From positions 119,570-183,569 of the forward strand of contig CAYYSJ010000002.1 in the NCBI GenBank assembly GCA_964474445.1: a stretch of DNA of 64,000 bases. The letters are read 5' to 3'. The stretch is from an uncultured Gammaproteobacteria bacterium (GTDB taxonomy: Bacteria; Patescibacteriota; Microgenomatia; Levybacterales; UBA12049). A program made the position numbers and the translations under genes. Shown piece after piece: positions 1-55,649 of the stretch. The notes below the pieces were generated by a model, which saw only the letters and a list, made by a program, of their open reading frames with translations, did no database searches and was not told where the DNA came from. How positions within the stretch are numbered: the first letter of the stretch is position 1; the number at the start of each line of letters is the position of its first letter.

Positions 1-104
1 ACCAATTTTTTCTTGATAGCATCAACAGCGAGTATTCGTTCATCCATAAATATTTGGTACCACTTACAAGATACTAGCTATTTGTTTTCTTTTTCAACTA
101 GTAA

Positions 105-836
105 TTAAGATGGCTTTTCTAACCTTGCTTTGACAATAAGCCGTTTCCAAATTGTTCCTGGAGGAGTACATGTAATAAGAGTGATATAACTATCATCGTA
201 AGTTTGTGAAAGAACAGACGTATCTTCTGGTTCTACAACGGTCAAAGAAACTATTGAGTAGGTAAAGATAACACCATTGACCGTTGCGATAATTGTATCT
301 CCTGGTTGCAGCGTATGCACATTGGCAAAAATCGTTTTGTAGTCATTCGGATTAAAAAGTTGGGGAAGTGTTGAATGACCAAAAATGACCGTATTTCCTT
401 TGTCAGGAGGGACAGCTGTACCGGAAAGATTGACAAGATGTTTGGAGAGATCTGTATCAAAAGTTGAGACTTGCGCATTGACAATATGAAGCTTGGGAAT
501 AGAAAGGGTATAGGCAGTCTCACGTGGAGCTGTATGCGAGACAGTATAGGTAGGGTACCAATTAGCTGCGTTCGTAAAATCAATACCTGAGAGTGTCTGC
601 AAACTTGCATTTACAAGGCTTGCAATAGTGATATTTGTCACAACACTATGTTGTGGAATAGGGACTGTTACTTGTTGTTCAGCAAATGCTGGAGCGAGAG
701 TCAATTGCCATAAAATAAGAGGACTAAAGACATAGAAGACAGTACCTAAACCTCCTAAGAAAATAAAAAGTCCTACACATCGTAAGACAATCTTCATGTT
801 CACAAATGAGGGGTTTTTGTAGTAGTACTTATTCAT
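105..836 (-). CDS. Sortase-family transpeptidase (N-terminal TM; His in GHSTLPQ; TLITC catalytic Cys; downstream Arg)
   Basis: The translation carries the sortase signature TLxTC with upstream His and downstream Arg, plus an N-terminal hydrophobic anchor. Its ATG overlaps the stop of the upstream gene (ATGAATAA), which suggests translational coupling. Confidence 0.72.
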   Translation of the reverse strand: MNKYYYKNPSFVNMKIVLRCVGLFIFLGGLGTVFYVFSPLILWQLTLAPAFAEQQVTVPIPQHSVVTNITIASLVNASLQTLSGIDFTNAANWYPTYTVSHTAPRETAYTLSIPKLHIVNAQVSTFDTDLSKHLVNLSGTAVPPDKGNTVIFGHSTLPQLFNPNDYKTIFANVHTLQPGDTIIATVNGVIFTYSIVSLTVVEPEDTSVLSQTYDDSYITLITCTPPGTIWKRLIVKARLEKPS

Positions 837-3195
837 TGGCAGAAAGATTTATTGTAATATTTCTTGATAAGCGAGGAAGTATCTGTGGCAGGAAGAAAAG
901 ATTAGGTGAAAGCTTAAACGTTACTCCTGCAAATTGTGGTGTCCCTGATAGAATTTCTTTTGCTTGTGAGAATGATTTACCGGCGATCTGAGGTGCAATT
1001 GTTTTGGTATCAAGATTAGGAAGCAGTGATGCTTTCATATCAAGCGTTGCTTTTGCACTACCGTCTTTTTGCAGTAAGTCCTTGACGTCATATGTGATGC
1101 CTTGTGAAGCAAGACGCATATCAGCAGGAAACTGACCTTGCATAACTGATTTTGTGTAGGTATCAATATCAGATTTTTTATAAGAAAGACTTTGATATGA
1201 AACAGTCCCAGTGAGGTTAATACTCGTTGCTTGATCACTAACTTTTTTATCAAACGAGCTTTTTGTAATTGTTGTTTTTGTAAAACTTGGCAATATAACG
1301 ACGTCACTGGTTGCTTGCTGTTGCAAATCTTGTTTTGCTTTATCAGTAAGGCTATTGGTCAATTGACCAGATAAATTATCGAGATCTTTTTGTGCAACAA
1401 CAGTAATTGTTTTTTTAGTACCACCAGAAAAAGCATTGTCATTTTTTGCAGCAACTGTCGAACTTGTTCCAACGCTGAATTTTGTACCAGAAGGAAGATT
1501 ATATTCAGTTCCGATATCTGCAGCAGTAACAGGAACATCCTGTTTTCCAGGCTGTGTCCCAGAGAAGATATCTCCACTTGCTGATGCTATTGTCACATCT
1601 TTATCAAGAGTAAATTTGAGACTATTCGAAGAGGTGATTGTTGTTCCTGCAGATAATGTTTTAGCTGAGTCATTATTGTTAAAAATAGTGACTGTCCCTT
1701 TTGCTTTATCACCAATATCTTTACTTCCTGTTGCATTGCCAGATACTGTTCCGTCTTCTGTAACCCCAATATTTGTTGCTGCAATTGTTCCAGAAGTCGT
1801 ATCACTTGAACCAGAAGTTGAAAAGGTCACTGACTGATTTTGTTCGATGACTTTTGGTGTTAAAGAAAGGGTAGCAATTGCATGTATTCCAAAAATATAC
1901 CAAATAAAAAAAAGAACAAGAAGTATAAGAATACCTGGAATAACAAAGATTGCTTTATTGCCACCCGCTGGGATAGGAGAAGGCAGATGAGTAGGAAATG
2001 AAAGGGGATTTTTAGGGAGGCCTTTTTTGATATTTTCAAAAGTTTTTTTTGCGCCTTCCACAAATGCTGGACCGCTGACACTAAATCCCGGAGTGACATT
2101 TGTTTCTTCCTCTTCTTTCACTTTCTCCGGGATTTCTTCAAATGAGTCAGATGCATAATGAGAGATGTGGGGTGTATCTGTTTTTATAATATCTTCATCT
2201 TTGACAAAACCAAAGTATTCCTGACTTGAATCCTCTGCAATTTCTTTTGCATCTTCTTGCTGAAATAACTGGGAAGAGCGATGATCGTGGGGAGTTTCTT
2301 CTCTTTCACCCTCATGAGTCTTTTTAGGGAAGGGGAAAGTAATCTGAGTTTTTTCTTCTTCGTTTGTATCTTCTACAGTTTCTTCTAGATTTTCCATGGG
2401 CTTTGTACTTGGTGCTTCACGTTGTTTTACCAAATCAATTGCATCAAATCCCATTTGCGTTGCTGTCCCAAAAAGAATTGCTCTCGTATCAAAATCTGAC
2501 GCGAGTGTGGTGGCTTGGGGAACATGAAGAAATGGAAGAGATTTGCTCCAATGATGGCTTATGAATGCATGTTCTGCTTTTTGATCACCATTATCAAATA
2601 AGATAAGACGAGAAGGGAAGATTTCTACATTTTCAAATTGTTTGAGTGCTGCTTCAACTGTTTGAGTGAGACTTTCACCGAAAGGTATTTCTTTTGTGGC
2701 AATGATTCTTCCCGCTCGGATAAGAGTAAGTGATACCTGCCTTTTCCCTGCATCAACAAGAATACCGGAAACAGGTGCTCCTTCTTCTTTCTGTAATAAA
2801 TGAGCAATTGCTTCTGGAAAAACCAAAAACCCAATTGGTTGCAAGTCGAGTTCTTGGCTCATTTGCTTGAGTTTTCCTAAGTACTCTTTTGTAATATGCG
2901 AATCTACTACCCAACTTTCTTTTACCCCAAAAACTGTTTTGTGTGTTTGAACACCATCTGGTAATGATTGCTCTGCAATACTAATTGCTCGATCTGCTGC
3001 ACTGAGCAGATTCTCTGAAGAGACATGTTCAAGAGAAGCAGGTAATTCTGCTTTCCCTTGCCCTATAACCTGGATTCGTCCTCCTACCTCTTCAAAAACG
3101 ACGGCATGAACATGTTCGTCACGAAGAAGAAAAGCCAAAAAATATTCTGTTGGCGGAGCCTTTTTAAAGAGAGACCCTAGTATAGGTAGCTTCAT
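829..3195 (-). CDS. Large bitopic membrane protein: N-terminal degenerate actin-like ATPase fold (FtsA/PilM/MreB-like, ~250 aa), acidic disordered linker, one TM helix, ~370 aa Ser/Thr/Gly-rich extracellular domain
   Basis: The N-terminus aligns by eye to the beta1-beta2 and phosphate-2 regions of FtsA/PilM (HAVVFEEVGGRIQVIGQGK; ILVDAGKRQVSLTLIRAGRIIATKEIPFGES), but the DxGT motif is replaced (FLLRDEH). A hydrophobic segment AIFVIPGILILLVLFFIWYIFGI follows, then an S/T-rich C-terminus. Confidence 0.45.
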   Translation of the reverse strand: MKLPILGSLFKKAPPTEYFLAFLLRDEHVHAVVFEEVGGRIQVIGQGKAELPASLEHVSSENLLSAADRAISIAEQSLPDGVQTHKTVFGVKESWVVDSHITKEYLGKLKQMSQELDLQPIGFLVFPEAIAHLLQKEEGAPVSGILVDAGKRQVSLTLIRAGRIIATKEIPFGESLTQTVEAALKQFENVEIFPSRLILFDNGDQKAEHAFISHHWSKSLPFLHVPQATTLASDFDTRAILFGTATQMGFDAIDLVKQREAPSTKPMENLEETVEDTNEEEKTQITFPFPKKTHEGEREETPHDHRSSQLFQQEDAKEIAEDSSQEYFGFVKDEDIIKTDTPHISHYASDSFEEIPEKVKEEEETNVTPGFSVSGPAFVEGAKKTFENIKKGLPKNPLSFPTHLPSPIPAGGNKAIFVIPGILILLVLFFIWYIFGIHAIATLSLTPKVIEQNQSVTFSTSGSSDTTSGTIAATNIGVTEDGTVSGNATGSKDIGDKAKGTVTIFNNNDSAKTLSAGTTITSSNSLKFTLDKDVTIASASGDIFSGTQPGKQDVPVTAADIGTEYNLPSGTKFSVGTSSTVAAKNDNAFSGGTKKTITVVAQKDLDNLSGQLTNSLTDKAKQDLQQQATSDVVILPSFTKTTITKSSFDKKVSDQATSINLTGTVSYQSLSYKKSDIDTYTKSVMQGQFPADMRLASQGITYDVKDLLQKDGSAKATLDMKASLLPNLDTKTIAPQIAGKSFSQAKEILSGTPQFAGVTFKLSPNLFFLPQILPRLSRNITINLSANE

Positions 3196-3301: not shown

Positions 3302-5179
3302 TTAGCTAACCAATGCATACAATCTCATAAGGTTATTTCCAAGTTTTTCTTGTTTTGTAATCGTAAATGATTGTATAACACCGGTATGTGCAACATGAGG
3401 TCCTCCGCAAAATTCTTTAGAGTAGGCGTTATAGTCACCTTCTTTTCCAGATCCTCCTATAATATATACTTTTACCTGCTCTTGATATTTCTCGTCAAAA
3501 AGACCGATAGCGTTAATGTCTTTCGCTTTCTGAAGTGGCATCATTTCAAATCTTACTGGCAAATCTTCTGTAATTTTCTCATTGACTGTTCTCTCAAGAG
3601 AGACAAGTTCCTCATTAGTTAATTTTCTGTCAAAGTTAAAATCAAATCGAAGTCTTTCAGTTGTAATATTAGATCCTGATTGATGAACTTGTGTTCCGAG
3701 CAAATCCCTTATTGCCTGATGTAAAAGATGCGTTGCCGTATGACCTTTCACTGTCAGATCTTGCGTATCAGCTAGCCCGCCTTTGAATTTTCCAGCTGAT
3801 GCTGTCTTTGAAAGGTTTTGATGTTCCTTGATTTTCTCAGCCAATTCCTCCTGATTGAATGTATACCCAAGACTTTTCAACTGGGTTGGGGAGAGTCCAA
3901 AGGATGAGATTGCCTTGAAAGCTGTCTCAGGAGAAATTTCCACTACTCCCAGAAGTTCATCCCCCTCTCTAACTCCAGGCAATTTTTCAGGTGACAGGGC
4001 CTGTTTTTGTACATCTTTTTCAATAAGCTTTTTGGCATTAGAGAGCGTTTGTTGGTATTTTTGTTGTTCAGTAAGAAGAGTAAGCAGAATTGGTTCAAAG
4101 TTATCTGTAAGATAAGGATCAGTTTCTTTATATTCTGCAACAATTGCTTCTACAATAGTTTTTGTATCTGCATCTTTTGCAAGTTCCCATAAGTGATCAA
4201 GGCCACGTCTGATAAGCCTTCGCAAAATATATCCTTGTTCTTTATTTGAAGGTAAAATACCATTTGCTGCCATCATAATACTCCCAAGCAGATGATCTGT
4301 TACAACTCTCATGTGTTTTTCGTTCCCTTTATAGGATTTATTGGTTGCTTTTTCTATTACCGTAATGATTGGTTTAAAAAGAGAAGTATGAAAAACATCA
4401 ACCTGATCCTCTGCTGCTGCTAAAAGTCTTTCAAGGCCGCCACCAAAATCAACATTTCGTTGAGGGAGTTCTTTAAAGGTACCATCATCTTGTTTCTGAT
4501 ACTGCATAAAGACACTATTTCCAATTTCCATAAATCGTCCACAGTCACAATTCACATGACATGTCTCATCTTTCCATGGACTATTTTCGTGCAGTTGTAA
4601 ATCTGCCCCAAAATCATAGAAAACTTCACTGTCAGGTCCTCCTGGTTCGCCAGCTGGCATCTTGTCGGGAGTTCCAGAGCGAGACCACCAATTTTTCTCA
4701 ACGCCGTATTCAAAAATTCTTTCATCTGGATTGAGTTCTGCATCAGAAAAGAGTTTTTTCCAAATTGCAGTAGAAGTTTCATCTTCCGGTATTTGATCGT
4801 TTCCTTTAAAAACAGTGACATAGAGCCTTTGTGGATCAAGACGTAGTTCTTTTGTTAAAAATTCCCAAAACCAGGGAATCTGTTCTGTTTTAAAATAGTC
4901 TCCCAATGACCAGTTGCCAAGCATCCGGAAAAAAGTTGTATGTCTGTTGTCTCCAATTTCATCGATGTCTTGTGCCCTGAAACAATTCTGAACATTTACA
5001 AGTCTTTTTCCAGCAGGATGAGACTCTCCTAATAAATATGGTACTAAGGGCTGCATACCGGAAGAGGTAAAAAGGGTAGTTGGATCATTTTCTGGCACCA
5101 GAGGAGCATTGGCAATTCGTGTATGCCTTCTCTTTTCAAAATATGAAATATATAAATCAATAATTTCTCTAGCCGTCAT
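3302..5179 (-). CDS. alaS: Alanyl-tRNA synthetase (short form, no C-Ala domain)
   Basis: The protein carries class II AlaRS motifs (LVPENDPTTLFTSSGMQP; FRMLGNWSLGDYFK) and the editing-domain motif GGPHV...HTG. The ORF-track start at 5233 is probably over-extended. The ATG at 5179 (MTAREII) sits 7 nt downstream of a TTGCTATAAT -10 element. Confidence 0.85.
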   Translation of the reverse strand: MTAREIIDLYISYFEKRRHTRIANAPLVPENDPTTLFTSSGMQPLVPYLLGESHPAGKRLVNVQNCFRAQDIDEIGDNRHTTFFRMLGNWSLGDYFKTEQIPWFWEFLTKELRLDPQRLYVTVFKGNDQIPEDETSTAIWKKLFSDAELNPDERIFEYGVEKNWWSRSGTPDKMPAGEPGGPDSEVFYDFGADLQLHENSPWKDETCHVNCDCGRFMEIGNSVFMQYQKQDDGTFKELPQRNVDFGGGLERLLAAAEDQVDVFHTSLFKPIITVIEKATNKSYKGNEKHMRVVTDHLLGSIMMAANGILPSNKEQGYILRRLIRRGLDHLWELAKDADTKTIVEAIVAEYKETDPYLTDNFEPILLTLLTEQQKYQQTLSNAKKLIEKDVQKQALSPEKLPGVREGDELLGVVEISPETAFKAISSFGLSPTQLKSLGYTFNQEELAEKIKEHQNLSKTASAGKFKGGLADTQDLTVKGHTATHLLHQAIRDLLGTQVHQSGSNITTERLRFDFNFDRKLTNEELVSLERTVNEKITEDLPVRFEMMPLQKAKDINAIGLFDEKYQEQVKVYIIGGSGKEGDYNAYSKEFCGGPHVAHTGVIQSFTITKQEKLGNNLMRLYALVS

Positions 5180-5186
5180 AAAAAGT

Positions 5187-5196
5187 ATTATAGCAA
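5187..5196 (-). promoter_or_regulatory. Extended -10 element TTGCTATAAT (minus strand) 7 nt upstream of the alaS ATG; implies a leaderless transcript
   Basis: The reverse complement of plus-strand ATTATAGCAA is TTGCTATAAT. The same motif recurs before other genes in the window. Confidence 0.45.
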
Positions 5197-5332
5197 AGAG
5201 CAGGATACGAAAGACAGAGCCATGGTCACTCAATAGGAATAGTATGAAATACAGCGAGGAGAAGATGTTGATCTACTCAAATTGATCTCATCATTTCCTT
5301 ACTATTCTGTGTCGCAAAACTTAAAAAGGTGC

Positions 5333-8879: not shown

Positions 8880-11800
8880 TTGACTAAATATATTATGGAT
8901 AATCAAAAAATGAAAAAATTAAAAGACGTAACCATTATTGACTTTAAAGCATTGAAGATTTTACTTGCTTCTAAAGAAGATATTTTAGATAGTTCTTTTG
9001 GAGAAGTTACGAAACCAGAAACAATTAACTATCGAACACTTCGACCTGAAAAAGATGGTCTCTTTGATGAGAGAATTTTTGGACCAACCAAAGACTGGGA
9101 ATGCTATTGTGGAAAATACAAAAGAATCAGATACAAAGGTATTATTTGCGATAAATGTGGTGTTGAAGTGACCCTTTCCAGAGTTAGACGAGAAAGAATG
9201 GGGCATATTATGCTCTCAGCACCTGTAAGTCATGTGTGGTTCTTTAAAGGTGCATCAAGTCCTCTCGCTACATTCTTAGATGTGTCTCAGAAGAGTCTTG
9301 AATCAGTTATCTACTATGCATCTCATTTAGTTGTTGCAGTTGATGAAGAGAAGAAAAAAGAAGCTCTTGAAGTCTTAAATAAGAATATTGAATCTCGAAA
9401 AGAAGCACTTCTTAAGGAAAAAGAAGAAGAAGAGAAAAAGATTGAAGCAGACTCCTCAGAAAAAGCTCAAGATGCAGACAAGATGAAAACAGAACAGAAA
9501 AAGCTTGTTGGTCAAGAGCTTGAGCTTATGAAGAGACAAAAGATTGCACGACTTACCGAGCGATTTAATGAAGAATCAAAGAAAGTTGAAGAAATTGCAA
9601 CAGCTCTCTCAAATCTTCTTAAAAGTCTTAAAGTTTCATCAGTTTTGTCTGAAGACGAATACTTTAAGCTTTTGGAATATGATATCCCAGTATTCTTTAC
9701 GATGAAGACTGGAGCAGAAGCAATCCTTGATCTCATGAAAGATCTGAGCTTGGATGATGTGATTGCAGATTTGAGAAAAGAATTAGAAAAAGCATCAGCT
9801 CAACGATACCTCAAACTTATTAAAAGACTTCGACTTATCGAGAACATGAAAAAATCTAGTATTGATCCTCGAGCGATGATTATGACTGCGTTGCCAGTTA
9901 TTCCACCAGACCTTCGACCTATGGTTCAACTTGCTGGAGGACGATTTGCTACCTCAGACTTGAATGACTTGTACAGAAGAGTAATCAACAGAAACAATCG
10001 TTTAAAGCACTTAATGAGTCTGGGGGCCCCAGAAATTATTCTGAGAAATGAGAAAAGAATGCTTCAAGAATCAGTTGACGCGTTAATTGATGCATCACAA
10101 AGATCTTCACAAGTTGTTGCATCACCGTTGAGATCACTTTCAGACATGCTCCGAGGGAAGCAAGGCCGCTTCCGACAGAACCTTCTTGGAAAGCGTGTTG
10201 ATTACTCTGGACGATCTGTTATCGTTGTAGGACCAGATTTGAAACTCTCTGAATGTGGACTTCCAAAAGAAATGGCTCTTGAAATGTTTAAGCCATTTGT
10301 ATTACGAGAAGTTATTGTCAGAGGTTTTGCTCCAAATATTAAGAGTGCAAAACGATTTATTGAGAAGAGACCACCAGAAGTATTTGATATTCTTGAGGAA
10401 ATCACCCGAAATCACCCTGTGCTTCTTAATCGTGCACCAACTCTTCACAAGCTTGGTATTCAGGCATTCTATCCAAGATTGATTGAAGGTTCTGCAATCG
10501 CACTTCACCCTTGTGTTTGTGCAGGATATAACGCAGACTTTGACGGCGACCAGATGGCTGTTCATATTCCGCTTTCTAAAAAAGCACAACAAGAAGCTAT
10601 TGAGTTGATGATGCCAAGACATAATCTTCTTAAGCCAGCTGATGGATCACCAATTACCCTTCCAAATAAAGAAATGGCTCTTGGTGTGTACTATCTTACT
10701 TCTTTGGATGAAACATTGAGAAAAGAAGACATGCCAGCTTTTTCGGATGCAAATGAAGCACTTCTTGCTTTCACATTAAAGAAAGTGACTCTTCGACAAC
10801 CAATTTTAGTCAGAGTGGATACCGGTACTAAGTTGGAAACAATTGAAACATCTATTGGAAGACTGAAACTTAATGAAAACCTTCTTCCAGGAATGTCTTA
10901 CATGAATGAAGCAGTCAAGGCATCAGGTATTAAAAAGCTTGTTACCAAGGCTCTTCTTACTTATACATCTGATGAAGTTGCAGACTTAATTGACCGAATT
11001 AAAGCACTTGGGTTCTATGGTTCTACCCAATCAGGTATTTCCGTATCTGTTTTTGATAATGAAATGGTTGAAGGAAAAAACAAGATGATTGAAGAAGGAG
11101 AGAAAAAAGTTGCTCAAATTAACGAAGAGTATCAACAGGGTCTTATCACTCTTGAAGAAAAGAAAAGATTACAAAATGATGTCTGGCTTAAGGTAACTGA
11201 TGAAATGGCAGAGAAGACATGGAACAATATGAAAGAAACCAATGTCATCAGAACCATTATTAACTCTGAAGGAGCTCGTGCAGGAAAAGAACAGCTTAAA
11301 CAGCTTTCGGCTATGAGAGGTCTTATTTTGGATCCACTTGGAAAGATTGTTGAACTTCCTATTAAATCTAACTTCCGAGAAGGTCTTTCAATCTTTGAAT
11401 ACGTTGCTTCAGCAAGAGGATCCCGAAAAGGTCTTACTGATTCAGCTCTCAAGACTGCAAACGCAGGATACTTAACCAGAAGACTTGTTGATGTATCTCA
11501 TGATGTCATCATTCGAGAAGAAGATTGTGGATCTGTAGAAGGTGTTACCATTCTTGCACACGATGGTGAACGAACAGCAACCTTGGCTGATAGAATTACC
11601 GGGCGATATGCAGCAGAGAAAGTAACTGCAGATAGAAAGACTTTGGTGAATGAAAACGAGCTTATTACTCCAGAAATTGCAAAAGTAATTTTAGATGCAG
11701 GAGTTGAGGAAGTCATTGTCAGATCACCTCTTACCTGCAAACTTTCATCCGGTCTCTGTAAGATGTGTTATGGTTGGGACTTTTCAACAAAACAAGTTGT

Positions 11801-23328: not shown

Positions 23329-25110
23329 ATGTTAAACATGCAGACACTACGACAAATTAAAGACTTTAACATCTTATTTTTGGGTTCTTATCCGTCTATT
23401 ATTCAATCTATTTTAGATTTTGATTATCTCTCAGGTAAAGAATATCCTTCCATTGTGGGAATTGTTGCAACCGGTCGTCGAACAGAACGTTATTTCTGGG
23501 GAGAGGGAGAAGTGATGCTTCCTGTTTTCCCAAGCGTTGATGCTGTACCCGAGGAAATAAAAAAAGAAGTGAATGCATTTTTTAACAATGCTTCGGGAAG
23601 GCGTGTTTTCTCAACAACGATAAATGCTCTGGATCTTTTTCCTCACCTTCAACTTGGAGTTATTTTTGCAGAAGAGACTCCGGAGAAACATGCTCTCGCC
23701 CTCTACAAAAAAGCAGAAGAAAGACAGGTCATGTTAGTCGGTCCAGCGAGTGTTGGCGTACTTCTCCCTCAAAAACTCAAGCTTGGTCCAATAGGCGGAG
23801 TGGATTTTCGACAAATGATAAGTTCTCAAATTCTCACGCCTGGGAATATTGCCGTTTTTTCTTCATCAGGAGGTATGACAAACGAGCTGATTAATATTGT
23901 CACATCAGCAGGTCACAGACTTTCTTTTGCCATGTCTTTTGGAGGAGATAGATTTCCTTTGATGACTCCTTTAGATGCACTGCTTGCGGTAGAAAAAGAC
24001 AAATCCACAGAATACATAGTCTATTTTGGAGAGTTGGGTGGGTATGATGAATATGATATCGCTGAGGCGCTGAAGACAAAAAAAGTAAACAAGAAAGTGA
24101 TTTGCTACATTGCAGGAACAGTATCAGAGATGTTTGAGACTCCTCCTCAGTTTGGTCATGCGAAGGCAATGGCTGGAAGAAGTGGTGAAGGAGCCTCTGC
24201 AAAAAGAAAAGCGTTACAGGAAGCAGGAGCAGTTGTTGCATCATCCTTTACTGATTTTGTTTCTATGGTAAGAAGTCTTCCACAAAAGCACTACAAGGAG
24301 ACCGAGTATGCTATGATAGGGAAGGTTATGGAAGAGAGACAAAAAGCACTCATTGCAACAACAATCAGTAGTGACAAGGATGGGAAAGTCATGGTGTTGG
24401 GCGAAGAGTTGTTGTCCTTTGCGAAGAATAATTCCTTTGCAAGAATTGTTGGAAGTTTGTTTTTAGGCAAAAAATTACGTTCTCGAGATACAGAACAATT
24501 CATTGATTTTGTTTTAAGACTATTAGTTGATCATGGCCCCTATGTTTCTGGTGCAGTCAATACCATTATTACTGCGCGAGCTGGAAAAGATTTAGTTTCG
24601 TCTCTTGCAACAGGCCTTTTGACAGTTGGTCCTCGCTTTGGTGGAGCAATTAATGAGGCAGCAGGAAATTGGTTAAGAGGTGCTACTAGGGGAGTCTCTG
24701 CTGAAGAATTTGTCGAACATTTTGCTTCTTCTAAAAAATTTATTGCAGGAATAGGTCACAAAAAATATCGAGTGGATTTCCCAGACCCTCGGGTAAAAGA
24801 AATTCTTCGATTTGCACCGGGGAAAAGAATGTTCACAAAATTTGCTTTGGAAGTTGAAAAAATCACAGTTGCTAAAAAAGGGAATCTTATCTTAAATGTT
24901 GATGGTGCAATTGCTGCTGTTTTACTTGATTTACTTTTAGAAAAGGAAGAATATACAGTGGAGGACTTGCAAAGACTTGTTGATATAGAATTCTTCAATG
25001 CCTTATTTGTACTGTCGCGCTCTGTTGGATTTATCTCTCATTTCTTGGATCAGAAGCGACTTGATGAAGGACTTTTCAGACTACCAGAAGATCAAGTTGC
25101 TGAAATATAA
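23329..25110 (+). CDS. aclA: ATP-citrate lyase large subunit (CoA-binding/SucD-like + citrate-synthase-like citryl-CoA lyase domain)
   Basis: VDHGPYVSGAVNTIITARAGKDLVSSLATGLLTVGPRFGGA and GIGHKKYRVDFPDPRV (the citrate-synthase His motif) are present. FVLSRSVGFISHFLDQKRL matches the ACLY C-terminus closely. Confidence 0.85.
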   Translation: MLNMQTLRQIKDFNILFLGSYPSIIQSILDFDYLSGKEYPSIVGIVATGRRTERYFWGEGEVMLPVFPSVDAVPEEIKKEVNAFFNNASGRRVFSTTINALDLFPHLQLGVIFAEETPEKHALALYKKAEERQVMLVGPASVGVLLPQKLKLGPIGGVDFRQMISSQILTPGNIAVFSSSGGMTNELINIVTSAGHRLSFAMSFGGDRFPLMTPLDALLAVEKDKSTEYIVYFGELGGYDEYDIAEALKTKKVNKKVICYIAGTVSEMFETPPQFGHAKAMAGRSGEGASAKRKALQEAGAVVASSFTDFVSMVRSLPQKHYKETEYAMIGKVMEERQKALIATTISSDKDGKVMVLGEELLSFAKNNSFARIVGSLFLGKKLRSRDTEQFIDFVLRLLVDHGPYVSGAVNTIITARAGKDLVSSLATGLLTVGPRFGGAINEAAGNWLRGATRGVSAEEFVEHFASSKKFIAGIGHKKYRVDFPDPRVKEILRFAPGKRMFTKFALEVEKITVAKKGNLILNVDGAIAAVLLDLLLEKEEYTVEDLQRLVDIEFFNALFVLSRSVGFISHFLDQKRLDEGLFRLPEDQVAEI

Positions 25111-25111
25111 A

Positions 25112-25954
25112 TTATTTAGGGGGTTGTTCGAGACGTCTTCTTGCTCTTTTGGTTAATGCACCCTGTTCTGATAGAACACGATGAACTGCAGCTTTACGCA
25201 TGGCATCTACTACTTGTCGCGAAGAAACTTGTTGTACGCTCATGACTTCAGGCCTTCGTGCATGGGCGATTGCGCTATCTACCTCATCTTGCAGTGGTTG
25301 TTGAACAACAACAGGTGGTTCCCCAGCTTTTCGGAAAACAAGTTCTTCAGACATTACTTTGATTTAATCAGAAAGGAGAGTTAGGAACAAGAGAAAGTTA
25401 TCTCAATGCTCGTGGATCTAGACGAATAACTCCTTCACTAATTTCTACTCCATTTAAAACTTCTTTTTTTGCATGCCTTTTATACCATCGTCGTGAGCGT
25501 ATTTTTGGTAAACCCACTGGGGGTTGTCTCCATACTGTACCCTCTTCAACTGTTTTTTGGGGCTCTGTTGGTGGATGTCTTCTTTTCCCCATAGTTTTGC
25601 GCATTATAGCAACTAAGATCTCGGTTGCCTTCTGGAAAATCGTGTGTCGTCAGTTGGTCCTACAGGTGGCTCCAAAATCCACACAGTGGGATTATTTGGA
25701 TCACCTAATGTTCGTTTTGCTTGTGCGAGTGTCTCTTCAACTTTTTCTGGAGTTTTTTTTGTTGAACGGGGTTTGGAAGGTCGTGAATGTGGTTTTGTTT
25801 CACCAAATGAAGCAGGAGGAATTATCCCGTAGGCTGTTTGAATAGCGCGAACCCCTCGACCATCATCTTCTCGTGAGCCTCCATTATTAGTAAGTCCTTT
25901 CCATTTGGAAGAAGGTTCTTTGTTCCCCACAATTACCATAATATCCATATACAC
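25112..25954 (-). other. Three collinear small basic ORFs (113, 68, 80 aa) in a locally GC-richer (~48-50%) patch; unknown function, possible gene remnant or foreign DNA
   Basis: The ORF-track entries 25613-25954, 25398-25604 and 25112-25354 all lie on the minus strand. They are R/K-rich (KRRHPPTEPQ...RSRRWYKRHAKK). I recognise no family for them. Confidence 0.25.
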
Positions 25955-26196
25955 TAAAAAAATACAATGGAGAAAATCATGAGTAAATCCGCATATTACG
26001 TCCTAATGTATGGTAAATAAATATTGATCACCTCAGTTCTCAAAAAAGAGAGATCTTCTCTCAACTACGACATGTCTCTTTACGAAGGAGTTCAATGCTA
26101 GTCCTTTGGTTGTTCTTTCATTATTCTTATTCCTTTTTTGCTTCGTTTTAAGACTCACTCAGCAATAATAAAAAGACGCAAAAGGAGGTGATTTCC

Positions 26197-28728: not shown

Positions 28729-28852
28729 ATCATTTCACCCCCTTTCTATAAAAATAGTAAAAGTAAGATAGATAAAAGTAAAGTAGAAGATGAGAAGGGG
28801 GGTTTTAAGGCTACAAAAAATGCTTCTCGCATTCTCCTGCTATAATCATTCC

Positions 28853-29908
28853 ATGAAGAAACTACTTTTTGGGATTTTAGTTATTGTGTTGTTAATCGTA
28901 TACACCGTTTCTATCTCACATCCTCAACAAAAAAAACAAACCTCAACTTTTGCTAGTCCAACTCCTACGATAGTTCCTGTAACCCTTACCAATAAAATAC
29001 TTTTTGTACCATATTGGACAGTAAATGGAGGTATCGATGGTACATACAATGAATATGTTTACTTTGGTGTTGTTCCAGATAAAACAGGTATTGTCCGTAC
29101 AGACAGTGGGTATCAAAACATGCAGACATTCGTACATGCTGTACCTACTGGAACGAAAAAATTACTAGGAGTACGAATGGTTAATACCACAATAAATGAG
29201 TCTATTTTGCATAATGATGCGTTGCAACAGAAAGTTATTGCTGATGCAGTTTCCATAGCGCAAGATAATGGATTTGATGGTATTTTACTTGATTTGGAAT
29301 ACAGTGCATTTCCCTTTGATTCTGTTATACAAAGCGTTACGACTTTTTCAAAGCAGTTTGCTGATATAACAAAAAGTCATAGCTTACTTTTTTATCAGAC
29401 AGTTTATGGAGATACCTATTACAGGGGAAGACCATATACGGTAAAGGATTTAGCAAAGAATGCTGATAGGATTTTAATAATGGCATATGATTTTCATAAA
29501 GCCAATGGGGATCCAGGAGCTAATTTTCCTCTTGAGATGGGAAGTGAAGGCTATTCATTTAAGGAAATGGTAAATAACTTTACCAAGGATGTTTCATTAT
29601 CCAAACTGACTGTGATTTTTGGCATGTTTGGATATGATTGGAAAGTAAATGAAAAAGGTAATTCAGTAGGACAAGCTGAAAGCTTGAGTACGAATGAAAT
29701 GTTGCAAAAGTTTGTTGGCAGGTGTTTATTTAAAAATTGTTCAGTCGTGCAAAATGCTTCTTTAGAAACAAACGTTACTTATGAAGATAGCACTGGACAG
29801 AAGCACGAAGTGTGGTTTGAGGATAGAACTTCTATTATCAAAAAAGAAGAAGTTCTGGAGAAAAATGGCATTTCTTCAGTTGGTTTCTGGGCGAATGGGT
29901 ACTTCTAG
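28853..29908 (+). CDS. Glycoside hydrolase family 18-like protein (chitinase/peptidoglycan hydrolase fold) with signal anchor
   Basis: DGFDGILLDLEY matches the GH18 DxxDxDxE catalytic motif. There is an N-terminal TM, and the start at MKKLLFGIL (28853) is preferred. Confidence 0.7.
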   Translation: MKKLLFGILVIVLLIVYTVSISHPQQKKQTSTFASPTPTIVPVTLTNKILFVPYWTVNGGIDGTYNEYVYFGVVPDKTGIVRTDSGYQNMQTFVHAVPTGTKKLLGVRMVNTTINESILHNDALQQKVIADAVSIAQDNGFDGILLDLEYSAFPFDSVIQSVTTFSKQFADITKSHSLLFYQTVYGDTYYRGRPYTVKDLAKNADRILIMAYDFHKANGDPGANFPLEMGSEGYSFKEMVNNFTKDVSLSKLTVIFGMFGYDWKVNEKGNSVGQAESLSTNEMLQKFVGRCLFKNCSVVQNASLETNVTYEDSTGQKHEVWFEDRTSIIKKEEVLEKNGISSVGFWANGYF

Positions 29909-53789: not shown

Positions 53790-54554
53790 ATGCCGAAGAA
53801 AAAAAGAACTCCTAAAAAAACTGATCAAGCAAAATCAGTAAAATCATTAAAACCAGTAAAAGCAGCACGAAAAACAGCCCCAAGAAAAAATGGTGTAAAA
53901 GCTCAAAAGACACAAACAGCTGAACAACAAATGGCTCCTGAAACACATACAACTTCTCAAGCAGTTAGTACAAATGCACGAAATCCAAGACTTTGGATAG
54001 GACTTGGTATTGTTGTTTTGGTTATTTTAGTAGTTGCTTTTAAAGGTTTATTCATTGCAGCAATCGTCAATGGCCAGCCAATTAGTCGATTACAAGTTTT
54101 GCAACAACTTGAGAAGCAAAACGGTAAGCAAGCATTAAGTAGTCTTGTTACCCAAACCCTTATTACTCAAGAAGCAGCAAAAAAACATGTGAGTGTCAGT
54201 CAGGCAGACGTAAATAGTGATTTAAAGAAAATCGATGATGCATTGAAAGCACAAGGACAAAATCTGGATACAGCACTTGCTGTGCGAGGATTGAGCAAAC
54301 AAGATTTGGTCCAGCAAATAACTCTCCAGAAATTAGTTGAGAAAATGGTAGGAAAAGATGTCAAAGTAACAGATGCAGATGTTCAAAAATATATTGATAA
54401 TAATCAAGATACGTTGCCAAAAGACTTGTCTGATGATCAATTACGAGCACAAGTGAAACAACAACTTGAACAACAACAATTGCAGGATAAAACACAAGCG
54501 TTTGTCGCAAATTTGCAGAAGAAAGCAAACATTTCCTACTTCGTTAGCTATTAA
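53790..54554 (+). CDS. Membrane-anchored protein with K-rich N-terminal tail and SurA-N-terminal-like chaperone domain
   Basis: Basic tail, one TM (LWIGLGIVVLVILVVAF), then a Q/L-rich helical domain resembling the SurA N-domain. Confidence 0.4.
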   Translation: MPKKKRTPKKTDQAKSVKSLKPVKAARKTAPRKNGVKAQKTQTAEQQMAPETHTTSQAVSTNARNPRLWIGLGIVVLVILVVAFKGLFIAAIVNGQPISRLQVLQQLEKQNGKQALSSLVTQTLITQEAAKKHVSVSQADVNSDLKKIDDALKAQGQNLDTALAVRGLSKQDLVQQITLQKLVEKMVGKDVKVTDADVQKYIDNNQDTLPKDLSDDQLRAQVKQQLEQQQLQDKTQAFVANLQKKANISYFVSY

Positions 54555-55213: not shown

Positions 55214-55577
55214 ATGCAGAGTATATCAAAGGAAATCTGAGAAAACTATCTGAAGAAAATCACAATATAAATAAGCGAGCGTCAATGGATCATCTTTAAC
55301 AATCTTAGAAAATAAGTTCTAGGATGACTATATATAGGTAGAATATTTTTCTACAAGTAAGCAATTATGAATATAATTAGAAACTTTCATAAATTTATTT
55401 TATTTCTTATTTTTACTTTGGCCAAGGCAAATAAGAGAACAGTAGGATTTTTGATTTAACTTTTTATTTTCATTTACATGTCGGAGATCTCGTAGAATTT
55501 TTTTATTACAATAAGAGCAAATTAAAGTAACAAACACAGTCATGTTTTTATTACAAATTATACGAATAGCAATTGTG

Positions 55578-55649
55578 TCGGGGCGACATGAATTGAACAT
55601 GCTACTTCTCGGACCCCATCCGAGCGTTCTACCGATGAACTACGCCCCG
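55578..55649 (-). tRNA. tRNA-Pro (anticodon GGG), 72 nt, no encoded CCA
   Basis: The minus strand reads CGGGGCG-TA-GTTC-ATCGGTA-GAAC-G-CTCGG-ATGGGGT-CCGAG-AAGTA-GCATG-TTCAATT-CATGT-CGCCCCG-A. It has a 7-bp acceptor stem, a 4-bp D stem with GG in the loop, a 5-bp anticodon stem, U33-GGG-G37, and a TTCAAxT T-loop. Confidence 0.7.

Follow-up and report, generated by a model that had tools for sequence, protein, structure and literature searches.

FtsA and PilM both act as docking platforms, binding short peptides in the cytoplasmic parts of bitopic partners. The type II secretion protein GspL/EpsL is itself bitopic: its cytoplasmic actin-like domain has lost nucleotide binding and is used for docking, and a single transmembrane helix connects it to a domain outside the cell. 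RodZ is bitopic as well, its cytoplasmic domain being tied to the actin-type cytoskeleton and its outside domain to the wall machinery. As for sortases, dedicated enzymes are typically encoded beside a single substrate, which is established for classes C, D and GN.

The locus described here lies in a window of 64,000 nucleotides (the whole stretch of DNA that was analysed) and encodes a large bitopic protein and a sortase. FtsA has about 400 aa, whereas the corresponding domain of the large protein has about 250 and is devoid of the 1C and 2B subdomains and of the Gly-rich phosphate loops; moreover, a transmembrane helix stands where FtsA has its amphipathic helix, the gene is not beside ftsZ, and the FtsA Pfam models give no match. 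Compared with PilM (with PilN), the 1C (SHS2) subdomain, the ATP-binding loops and any sequence-model match are missing, and the platform itself carries the transmembrane helix and a large ectodomain, whose outside part is not PilN/PilO-like. The overall logic is the same as in GspL/EpsL; nevertheless, GspL gave no Pfam match and was absent from the top 50-60 structural matches, and no T2SS genes lie nearby. RodZ resembles the large protein in its general layout but binds MreB by an HTH domain, whereas here the cytoplasmic domain is itself of the actin fold. A RodZ-like gene is present in the same conserved neighbourhood as the large gene. In known sortase-partner pairs (class C sortase-pilin, class D, class GN 'marine') the sortase likewise stands directly beside one conserved partner gene, but the partner described here lacks a sorting signal and crosses the membrane itself (N-in/C-out), and its sortase scores below the class cut-offs. 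With the Baseplate J/gp47/T4 gp6/diffocin TRI-2 wedge proteins only the barrel domain is common at the sequence level; unlike them, the large protein is membrane-anchored with a cytoplasmic domain, and has neither a phage or tailocin context nor viral relatives.

A pared-down FtsA/PilM-type domain, a barrel of the phage-baseplate type and a sortase have not been reported in combination. No description of the pair was found in the literature on Patescibacteria/CPR sortases, baseplate J in CPR, Levybacteria, or actin-like proteins with sortases, which agrees with an earlier reading made from the sequence only, where the architecture was not recognised as a known system. A 2026 'Pam pilus' preprint was considered and set aside, as it deals with a different, chaperone-usher-like system. 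How the surface of these ultra-small, host-dependent bacteria is organised is largely obscure. Within one large uncultured lineage the pair is a core module, its two genes being strictly linked. Sortases as such are near-ubiquitous in Microgenomates (PMC6744442).

The gene pair and its conservation

The genes of the locus are as follows.

829..3195, minus strand: gene of the large bitopic protein (ORF of 788 aa)
105..836, minus strand: sortase gene (ORF of 243 aa)
829..836, minus strand: 8-nt stop/start overlap, octamer ATGAATAA, holding the large-gene stop and the sortase ATG
3302..5233, minus strand: alaS (alanyl-tRNA synthetase), 106 nt upstream of the large gene on the same strand
1..47, minus strand: start of the next downstream gene (MDERILAVDAIKKKL...), cut by the window edge and compared with the L003 orthologue

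As the sequence-only reading had noticed, the stop of the large gene overlaps the ATG of the sortase gene, the octamer ATGAATAA being common to both, and from this overlap it seems plausible that translation of the sortase is coupled to that of the large gene. We found 731 homologues of the large protein (E<=1e-3), all of them full length, while 1415 clusters at 50% identity match its N-terminal domain by itself; the two are therefore real genes rather than chance ORFs. A relative is encoded in 237 species-level genomes, and the family is Levybacteria-wide.

The neighbourhood was examined in the best-matching 80 of these 237, a set biased to closer relatives. The large gene and the sortase adjoin in all 77 related loci that were informative (those in which the DNA continues downstream), and no two of these come from the same species-level genome. 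The same 8-nt overlap, with the ATG at -8 relative to the upstream stop, occurs in about 61 of the 77, and in the remaining ones the sortase ATG lies between -4 and +24 nt of the large-gene stop. The pair is kept also in a more distant clade, where identity to the window protein is only 30%; a walk from one such homologue, P0251, led to the same architecture, lineage and sortase neighbour. A search with the sortase returned orthologues only. Co-occurrence with the sortase, on which the sequence-only reading had made its proposal depend, is seen both in these loci and in the 30%-identical clade.

The conserved order in the 80 loci is alaS, large gene, sortase, nucleoside-phosphorylase-like gene and mltG, with alaS directly upstream of the large gene in nearly all of them. 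The truncated gene at 1..47 is orthologous to a nucleoside/AMP-phosphorylase-like gene (Pfam Glycos_transf_3 and PYNP_C matches), which in related loci stands before mltG. No terminator-like site was found in the gap between alaS and the large gene, and a promoter/terminator scan gave counts at or below shuffled expectation. Envelope genes are found among the conserved neighbours, namely mltG downstream and convergent RodZ-like and FtsK genes, and rpoBC is also near. In our reading the two genes are a core, vertically inherited feature of Levybacteria-type Patescibacteria. Because the operon also holds unrelated housekeeping genes (alaS and the phosphorylase-like gene), the gene order partly reflects a frozen core-genome arrangement. 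Adjacency and overlap show co-expression, not complex formation.

Domains of the large protein

An AF2 model of the large protein has a mean pLDDT of 83.4. The following parts were distinguished.

2422..3195, minus strand: cytoplasmic N-terminal domain, aa 1-258, a minimal ASKHA/actin-like core
2512..2553, minus strand: conserved surface loop HxWSKSLPFLHVPQ (aa 215-228 region), a candidate partner-binding site
1957..2421, minus strand: acidic disordered cytoplasmic linker, aa 259-413 (pLDDT <50; 22% Asp+Glu over residues 259-411)
2188..2214, minus strand: short linear motif FGFVKDEDI (consensus FGFVxxxD[IV]) in the linker, recognised by conservation
1885..1956, minus strand: single transmembrane helix, aa 414-437, the sole hydrophobic segment in the large protein (hydropathy)
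1414..1713, minus strand: extracellular beta-barrel, aa 495-594, homologous to phage/tailocin wedge proteins (Baseplate_J, gp47, TRI-2)
832..1416, minus strand: C-terminal extracellular region, aa 594-788, of alpha/beta domains, ending in a conserved LSPNLPFLPKxLPR segment

In the predicted secondary structure, the N-terminal domain consists of two uninterrupted beta-beta-beta-alpha-beta-alpha-beta-alpha lobes within about 250 aa, that is, the two-lobe ASKHA (actin-like) fold, and in the predicted structure the 1B/1C/2B inserts are absent. Comparison of the predicted fold placed it closest to FtsA and PilM:PilN; only about 215 of FtsA's 370-380 residues align. Residues 1-260 gave no Pfam or NCBIfam match even at E<=1, the FtsA/SHS2_FTSA, PilM and GspL models included, and a family profile run against PDB sequences found no ASKHA protein, so that the domain is recognised only by fold comparison and not by sequence models. 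The likeness to FtsA, and perhaps to PilM, that the sequence-only reading had claimed is therefore one of the predicted fold and does not extend to a match with any FtsA, PilM or GspL sequence model. An SHS2 insert, which that reading had weighed against an actin fold, was not seen: the domain is a bare two-lobe ASKHA core without SHS2/1C or 2B.

Glycine-rich phosphate loops are missing family-wide (121/121 members). The family consensus at the phosphate-1, phosphate-2 and adenosine loop positions, as assigned by place in the predicted fold rather than by residue-level superposition, is LLRDEK, LVExGKK and IILFD[GS], respectively. The domain is thus probably a pseudo-ATPase that has lost its activity, and the loss of the loops is compatible with, though no proof of, the non-catalytic role suggested earlier. 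Since acidic residues are retained at both phosphate-loop positions (D26/E27 and E/D148), together with one Gly at 150, binding of a nucleotide or metal may still occur. In the surface loop HxWSKSLPFLHVPQ, W216, F222, L223, H224 and P226 are invariant in 121/121 sequences, and H214 and Q227 are found in 120. Conservation is highest in the cytoplasmic domain, where mean column identity is 64% vs 40-47% for the whole protein.

The linker varies between 93 and 223 aa across the family. Its FGFVxxxD[IV] motif is found in 115/121 homologues, also in the 30%-identical clade, with G329 and F330 invariant. The transmembrane helix was modelled at 415-436 (AF2), and its Y433 is nearly invariant. Hydropathy, composition and pLDDT all bear out the succession of acidic linker, single transmembrane helix and S/T/G-rich ectodomain that had been read from the sequence.

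The ectodomain (438-788) is large, rigid and rich in Ser+Thr (26%; 33% with Gly counted). Its barrel matches Baseplate_J (PF04865) with 28.9 bits vs a gathering threshold of 21.1, covering only profile positions 21-110 of 255, and PHROG 6 over 86/548 positions. Structurally it is similar to TRI-2, Mu gp47 and cyanophage wedge proteins, and the same barrel is also found in GlxA, a non-phage secreted enzyme. The last 195 residues gave no match to any solved fold. The Baseplate_J homology had been missed in the sequence-only reading; because of it the family bears the PGAP name 'baseplate J/gp47 family protein', which is misleading for this family and could lead to prophages being called wrongly in CPR genomes.

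The sortase and the search for sorting signals

Three parts of the sortase were distinguished.

120..506, minus strand: catalytic domain, aa 111-239, with GHS His, TLITCTPPG Cys and Arg
720..794, minus strand: transmembrane anchor, aa 15-39 (hydropathy), with G29 and P39 invariant and Y35 nearly so
798..836, minus strand: cytoplasmic N-terminal peptide M-x-K-[YI]-Y-Y-K-K followed by basic residues, recognised by conservation

The earlier assignment as a sortase with its TLITC, His and Arg and an anchor of its own proved correct: Pfam PF04203 matches with 78.7 bits vs a cut-off of 26.6 (E 4e-22), GHS, TCTPPG and the downstream Arg are at least 95% conserved in 78 orthologues, and the N-terminal transmembrane segment is present. 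The protein lies below every NCBIfam class cut-off (A-F, GN), the best being class C (71.1 bits vs 160), followed by 50 vs 165 bits for class D and 47 vs 160 for class E. The nearest solved chains are 4d70 ('sortase family protein', E 3e-13) and the class C sortase 8t28. Judged by these scores, the enzyme fits no defined class and is closest to classes C and D. Within its N-terminal peptide, Y5 is conserved in 68/78 sequences, Y6 in 63/78, K7 in 54/78 and Lys at position 8 in 57/78 (Asn in the window). This conservation reaches past the overlap, and the overlap constrains the first 8 nt only.

Neither the window protein nor any of 121 homologues has an LPxTG, a C-terminal hydrophobic segment or a basic C-terminal tail. 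The large protein had already been said to be without an LPxTG-like motif, and the absence of a sorting signal throughout the family indicates that it is not an ordinary sortase substrate. Two invariant segments, NLPSGT and LPxxLPR, were weighed as possible cryptic sites for the sortase and rejected, as both are inside folded domains; NLPS falls within the Baseplate_J barrel and is common to phage homologues. A search for sorting-signal proteins beyond the large protein, by regex and hydropathy, covered every ORF in the window and about 900 more in the 80 loci (about 1 Mb); it gave two false positives only and hence no candidate.

Proposed function and its alternatives

As the best-supported reading we propose, with a probability of about 40%, that the large protein is an envelope-spanning scaffold which works in complex with its sortase, the two forming an envelope module. 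Inside the cell, the minimal FtsA/PilM-like actin-fold domain, with its nucleotide-binding loops lost, would serve as a protein-docking module, joined to the single transmembrane helix by the long acidic tether with its FGFVxxxD[IV] motif, while outside the cell a baseplate-wedge-type beta-barrel and novel alpha/beta domains would form the rigid ectodomain. The sortase, made from the same mRNA by coupled translation, would insert beside the scaffold and act in complex with it, and the scaffold might position or gate the anchoring of surface proteins or pilus subunits in the wall, so that sortase activity would occur at sites set from the cytoplasm. The two could plausibly make contact by docking of the sortase N-peptide (MxK-YYKK) onto the actin-fold domain, in the manner of PilM:PilN.

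In favour of this proposal, the genes adjoin in every informative locus, mostly with the identical overlap, and stay together in the distant clade. The predicted fold is closest to known docking platforms, and the cytoplasmic domain is better conserved than the rest of the protein. Gly loops are missing from every one of the 121 members, whose other surface loops are invariant, and the sortase N-peptide is conserved beyond the codons constrained by the overlap. Envelope genes (mltG, RodZ-like, FtsK) are among the conserved neighbours, and the family-wide lack of a sorting signal speaks against an ordinary substrate. Against the proposal, no sortase substrate turned up in the window or in the roughly 1 Mb of related loci scanned, acidic residues are kept at both phosphate-loop positions, the folds are predicted ones, the loci are biased to closer relatives, and housekeeping genes share the operon. 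If the scaffold docks and positions the sortase, sortase activity would be controlled in space by a principle that is new, and an actin-fold pseudo-enzyme would serve as a transmembrane adaptor. A further-reaching version, which we consider rather unlikely, is that the pseudo-actin scaffold grips the YYKK peptide in PilM:PilN fashion and the wedge-like ectodomain oligomerises into an extracellular platform, the two forming a fixed 'sorting station' by which the anchoring of surface proteins or pili is coupled to cytoplasmic cues in ultra-small CPR cells; sortase activity would then be organised in a way not recognised before, and a phage baseplate domain would have become part of the core envelope machinery of the cell.

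The sequence-only reading suggested a link to the cytoskeleton or divisome with recruitment of the sortase. A lineage-specific divisome or elongasome anchor could tether FtsZ, MreB or other cytoskeletal elements to the wall in an FtsA-like manner through its transmembrane helix, the sortase being a mere co-transcribed neighbour with a housekeeping role of its own. This seems unlikely to us, as the FtsA 1C and 2B subdomains, which bind FtsN and FtsZ, and the ATP loops are absent, the conserved neighbourhood (80 loci) is devoid of ftsZ and dcw genes, and the strictly conserved 8-nt overlap would be unexplained if the genes were functionally unrelated. That the large protein is an assembly platform, GspL-like or fused PilM-PilN-like, for type IV pili or for a machine related to type II secretion is highly doubtful. 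Neither the 64-kb window nor the conserved neighbourhood of the 80 loci holds type IV pilus genes (pilB, pilC, pilT, pilins), and no PilN/PilO-type periplasmic domain follows the transmembrane helix.

The large protein might instead be the dedicated partner-substrate of the sortase, processed at a non-canonical site or offering an ectodomain nucleophile by which other proteins or pilins would be bound covalently to a base in the membrane. The single-substrate habit of class C, D and GN sortases, the closeness of this enzyme to classes C and D and the large, rigid, Ser/Thr-rich ectodomain speak for it, but the lack of all three sorting-signal elements in every homologue, the modelled placement of the near-C-terminal LPxxLPR before a strand that belongs to a folded domain, and the position of the invariant NLPS within the barrel, as in phage homologues, make it improbable. 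As for a prophage or tailocin baseplate protein, which the public name implies, the Baseplate_J and PHROG 6 matches and the structural likeness to wedge proteins concern only about 100/788 residues (90/255 Pfam and 86/548 PHROG positions) and a barrel that GlxA has too; a transmembrane helix and a cytoplasmic actin-fold domain are foreign to baseplate proteins, and the position between alaS and the sortase, near rpoBC, is fixed in 77+ species, so that this reading is effectively refuted already. No relatives were found in 2.9 million viral contigs (IMG/VR) or 50,697 phage genomes (INPHARED); with PHROG matching the barrel only and PADLOC giving no match, a prophage or defence origin was rejected.

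A conserved gene pair in a housekeeping region

The window, from a low-GC (about 38%) Patescibacteria genome, covers a housekeeping region with alaS, rpoB, rpoC, rpsL, rpsG, fusA, tuf, the S10-spc-alpha ribosomal operons, secY, adk and map. The sequence-only reading had placed here a large bitopic protein and an overlapping sortase gene, and all of its factual elements (ORF pair, overlap, sortase identity, single TM helix, acidic linker, Ser/Thr-rich C-terminal part) were found to be correct. The genes in question are:

829-3195, minus strand: large gene, 788-aa ORF
105-836, minus strand: sortase gene, 243-aa ORF
1-47, minus strand: start of the next gene downstream of the sortase, first 15 codons only (nucleoside/AMP-phosphorylase-like in related loci)

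The stop codon of the large gene and the sortase ATG both lie within the octamer ATGAATAA, which forms the 8-nt overlap. Upstream of the large gene, 106 nt away and in the same orientation, lies alaS; a scan of the gap showed no terminator-like site. Family-wide, the large protein almost always ends in N-[EDG]-stop (window 829-831), a pattern that probably reflects the overlap with the sortase start (ATGAxTAA) and not a functional need of the large protein.

The expectation that the pair is conserved as neighbours held in related genomes. Among the best 80 of 237 loci, 77 contain DNA downstream of the large gene (the other three stop at a contig edge), and the sortase follows immediately in 77/77. 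Its ATG lies exactly 8 nt before the large-gene stop in about 61 of them; in the remaining loci the extremes are an overlap of 4 nt and a gap of 24 nt. The genes rpoB (minus strand) ... alaS, the large gene, the sortase gene, the phosphorylase-like gene and mltG (YceG) stand in this conserved order and share one strand; a clade with 30% identity to the window protein keeps the last four. The phosphorylase-like gene (thymidine/AMP-phosphorylase-like; Glycos_transf_3, PYNP_C) and then mltG are always present in related genomes on the sortase strand (9188-11516 in the related locus L003). Also conserved is a convergent trio (L003 11575-14393, with equivalents in about 50 loci) of one or two acidic-tailed small TM proteins, a RodZ-like protein (HTH_25, TM helix, Glucodextran_B-like beta domain) and FtsK, and the module therefore lies within a conserved cell-envelope and division neighbourhood. 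The phosphorylase-like gene is a nucleotide-salvage gene inside this otherwise envelope-related string.

Relatives of the large protein are encoded by 237 species (GTDB contigs, one genome per species). At E<=1e-3 we found 731 homologues, named 'baseplate J/gp47 family protein' by PGAP in some cases and 'hypothetical protein' in others; the best 120 come from MAGs labelled Patescibacteria or Levybacteria and are nearly all full length; four are of similar length but align over a shorter stretch in BLAST. Searching with a profile limited to the N-terminal domain (N-domain) recovered 1415 clusters at 50% identity, 633 of them at E<=1e-30. Fragments apart, the best 150 all share the same 700-820-aa architecture, and a search restarted from a member 30% identical to the window protein returned the same architecture and lineage names. 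Many MAG records with the cluster (L002, L003, L005 and others) carry the title 'uncultured Gammaproteobacteria bacterium', and a few name Eisenbacteria, Methylomirabilota or Lysobacterales instead; such public records are evidently mislabelled. Because NCBI MAG titles are unreliable, we name the lineage only as 'Levybacteria-type Microgenomatia'.

Predicted architecture of the large protein

The large protein was modelled with AlphaFold2 from 121 homologues (mean pLDDT 83.4; >90 at residues 10-255 and 420-788). The N-domain, its best conserved part, is predicted to consist of two consecutive beta-beta-beta-alpha-beta-alpha-beta-alpha lobes, a bare ASKHA core, and a Foldseek search of the PDB placed P. 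aeruginosa PilM on top (E 1.6e-9), followed by PPX/GppA, EutJ, MreB and FtsA. The model thus supports the proposed actin-like fold. Nevertheless, the N-domain falls outside the FtsA, PilM and GspL families: the predicted fold has no room for 1C/SHS2 or 2B inserts, no sequence model recognises it (Pfam, NCBIfam; family profile against PDB sequences), and its loops are divergent. The three nucleotide-binding loops, located from their place in the predicted fold, have the sequences LLRDEK, LVExGKK and IILFD[GS] where DxGxxxxK, DxGGGT and GG would be canonical; the canonical phosphate-binding residues are absent, as had been claimed. Acidic residues persist at both phosphate loops, and we thus consider the domain only a likely pseudo-ATPase. 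The most striking conservation is found in the loop HxWSKSLPFLHVPQ, invariant or nearly so in 121 sequences. The N-terminus M-K-L-P (aa 1-4, window 3184-3195) is also nearly invariant (at least 90% of 121 homologues) and K12 is likewise highly conserved, such a conserved start being unusual for a cytoplasmic domain.

The acidic linker (22% Asp+Glu) is predicted to be disordered at residues 259-411 apart from a helix at 376-392; across the family the linker is 93 to 223 aa long, and 115 of 121 members carry an FGFVxxxD[IV] motif in it. Residues 414-437 are the sole hydrophobic segment. The C-terminal part (26% Ser+Thr) includes an ectodomain stretch, residues 495-594, with homology to baseplate wedge proteins: the barrel region matches Pfam Baseplate_J (E 8.7e-7) and PHROG 6 (E 1.9e-9), and the family profile matches diffocin TRI-2 (E 1.1e-5).

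The sortase and its possible relation to the large protein

The sortase matches PF04203 (78.7 bits, cut-off 26.6) and has an N-terminal TM segment, and its His, TLITCTPPG Cys and Arg are conserved across 78 orthologues, in agreement with the earlier description of a membrane-anchored enzyme with these residues. It falls below every NCBIfam class cut-off (best class C, 71 bits vs 160); among solved structures, chain 4d70 ('sortase family protein', E 3e-13) and class C pilus sortases come closest. Outside the catalytic domain, the N-terminal cytoplasmic peptide M-x-K-[YI]-Y-Y-K-K is conserved, and since the gene overlap constrains just the first two and two-thirds codons, conservation of YYKK is independent of it.

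As had been noted for the window protein, a C-terminal LPxTG-like motif is missing, and neither this motif nor a C-terminal hydrophobic segment or basic tail occurs in any of the 121 members. No sorting-signal proteins were found in the window or the 80 related loci.

The two genes are strictly adjacent, their conserved overlap is of a kind linked to translational coupling, and the large protein is no sortase substrate; all this suggests that the two proteins are produced jointly and act together. The closest structural analogues, PilM and FtsA, serve as platforms to which bitopic partners (PilN and FtsN) bind by short cytoplasmic peptides, and in GspL a domain of this sort has lost nucleotide binding and acts purely as an adaptor fused to a TM helix. 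On these grounds we tentatively propose, with a probability of about 0.4, that the large protein may be a bitopic scaffold which would dock and position the sortase, perhaps via the sortase N-terminal peptide or its own intramolecular FGF motif.

A rival reading, an FtsA-like anchor in the envelope with no tie to the sortase, would leave the strictly conserved overlap unaccounted for; we regard it as unlikely. That the large protein is a non-canonical sortase substrate or acceptor is doubtful, adjacency speaking for it and the missing sorting features against it. Less probable again is a pilus platform of the GspL/PilMN type. A baseplate remnant, which the ectodomain homology recalls, is very improbable; relatives were found neither in IMG/VR nor in 50,697 phage genomes. 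With no viral relatives, no PADLOC match and a fixed chromosomal position, a prophage or tailocin origin of the present-day gene is excluded. The leftover probability belongs to functions beyond the scaffold and these four rivals.

Literature searches found no published description of the family or of its pairing with a sortase, in line with the initial impression of an undescribed system; a 2026 Pam-pilus preprint concerns a different system. What is new is the ectodomain and the sortase partner of the proposed bitopic actin-fold adaptor, such adaptors being of a known kind.

Other features of the window

Two candidate secreted or envelope proteins, both without a sorting signal, are a GH18 chitinase-like protein with an N-terminal hydrophobic segment (28790-29908, plus strand) and a SurA_N_3-domain protein (53790-54554, plus strand). 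The sole tRNA gene found in the 64-kb window is tRNA-Pro(GGG) (55577-55649, minus strand). Three consecutive small Pro/Arg-rich ORFs of 80, 68 and 113 aa without a Pfam match (25112-25954, minus strand) lie between a gene that ends at 25110 and the gene for a small basic protein at 26188; they may be spurious or encode small proteins specific to the lineage.
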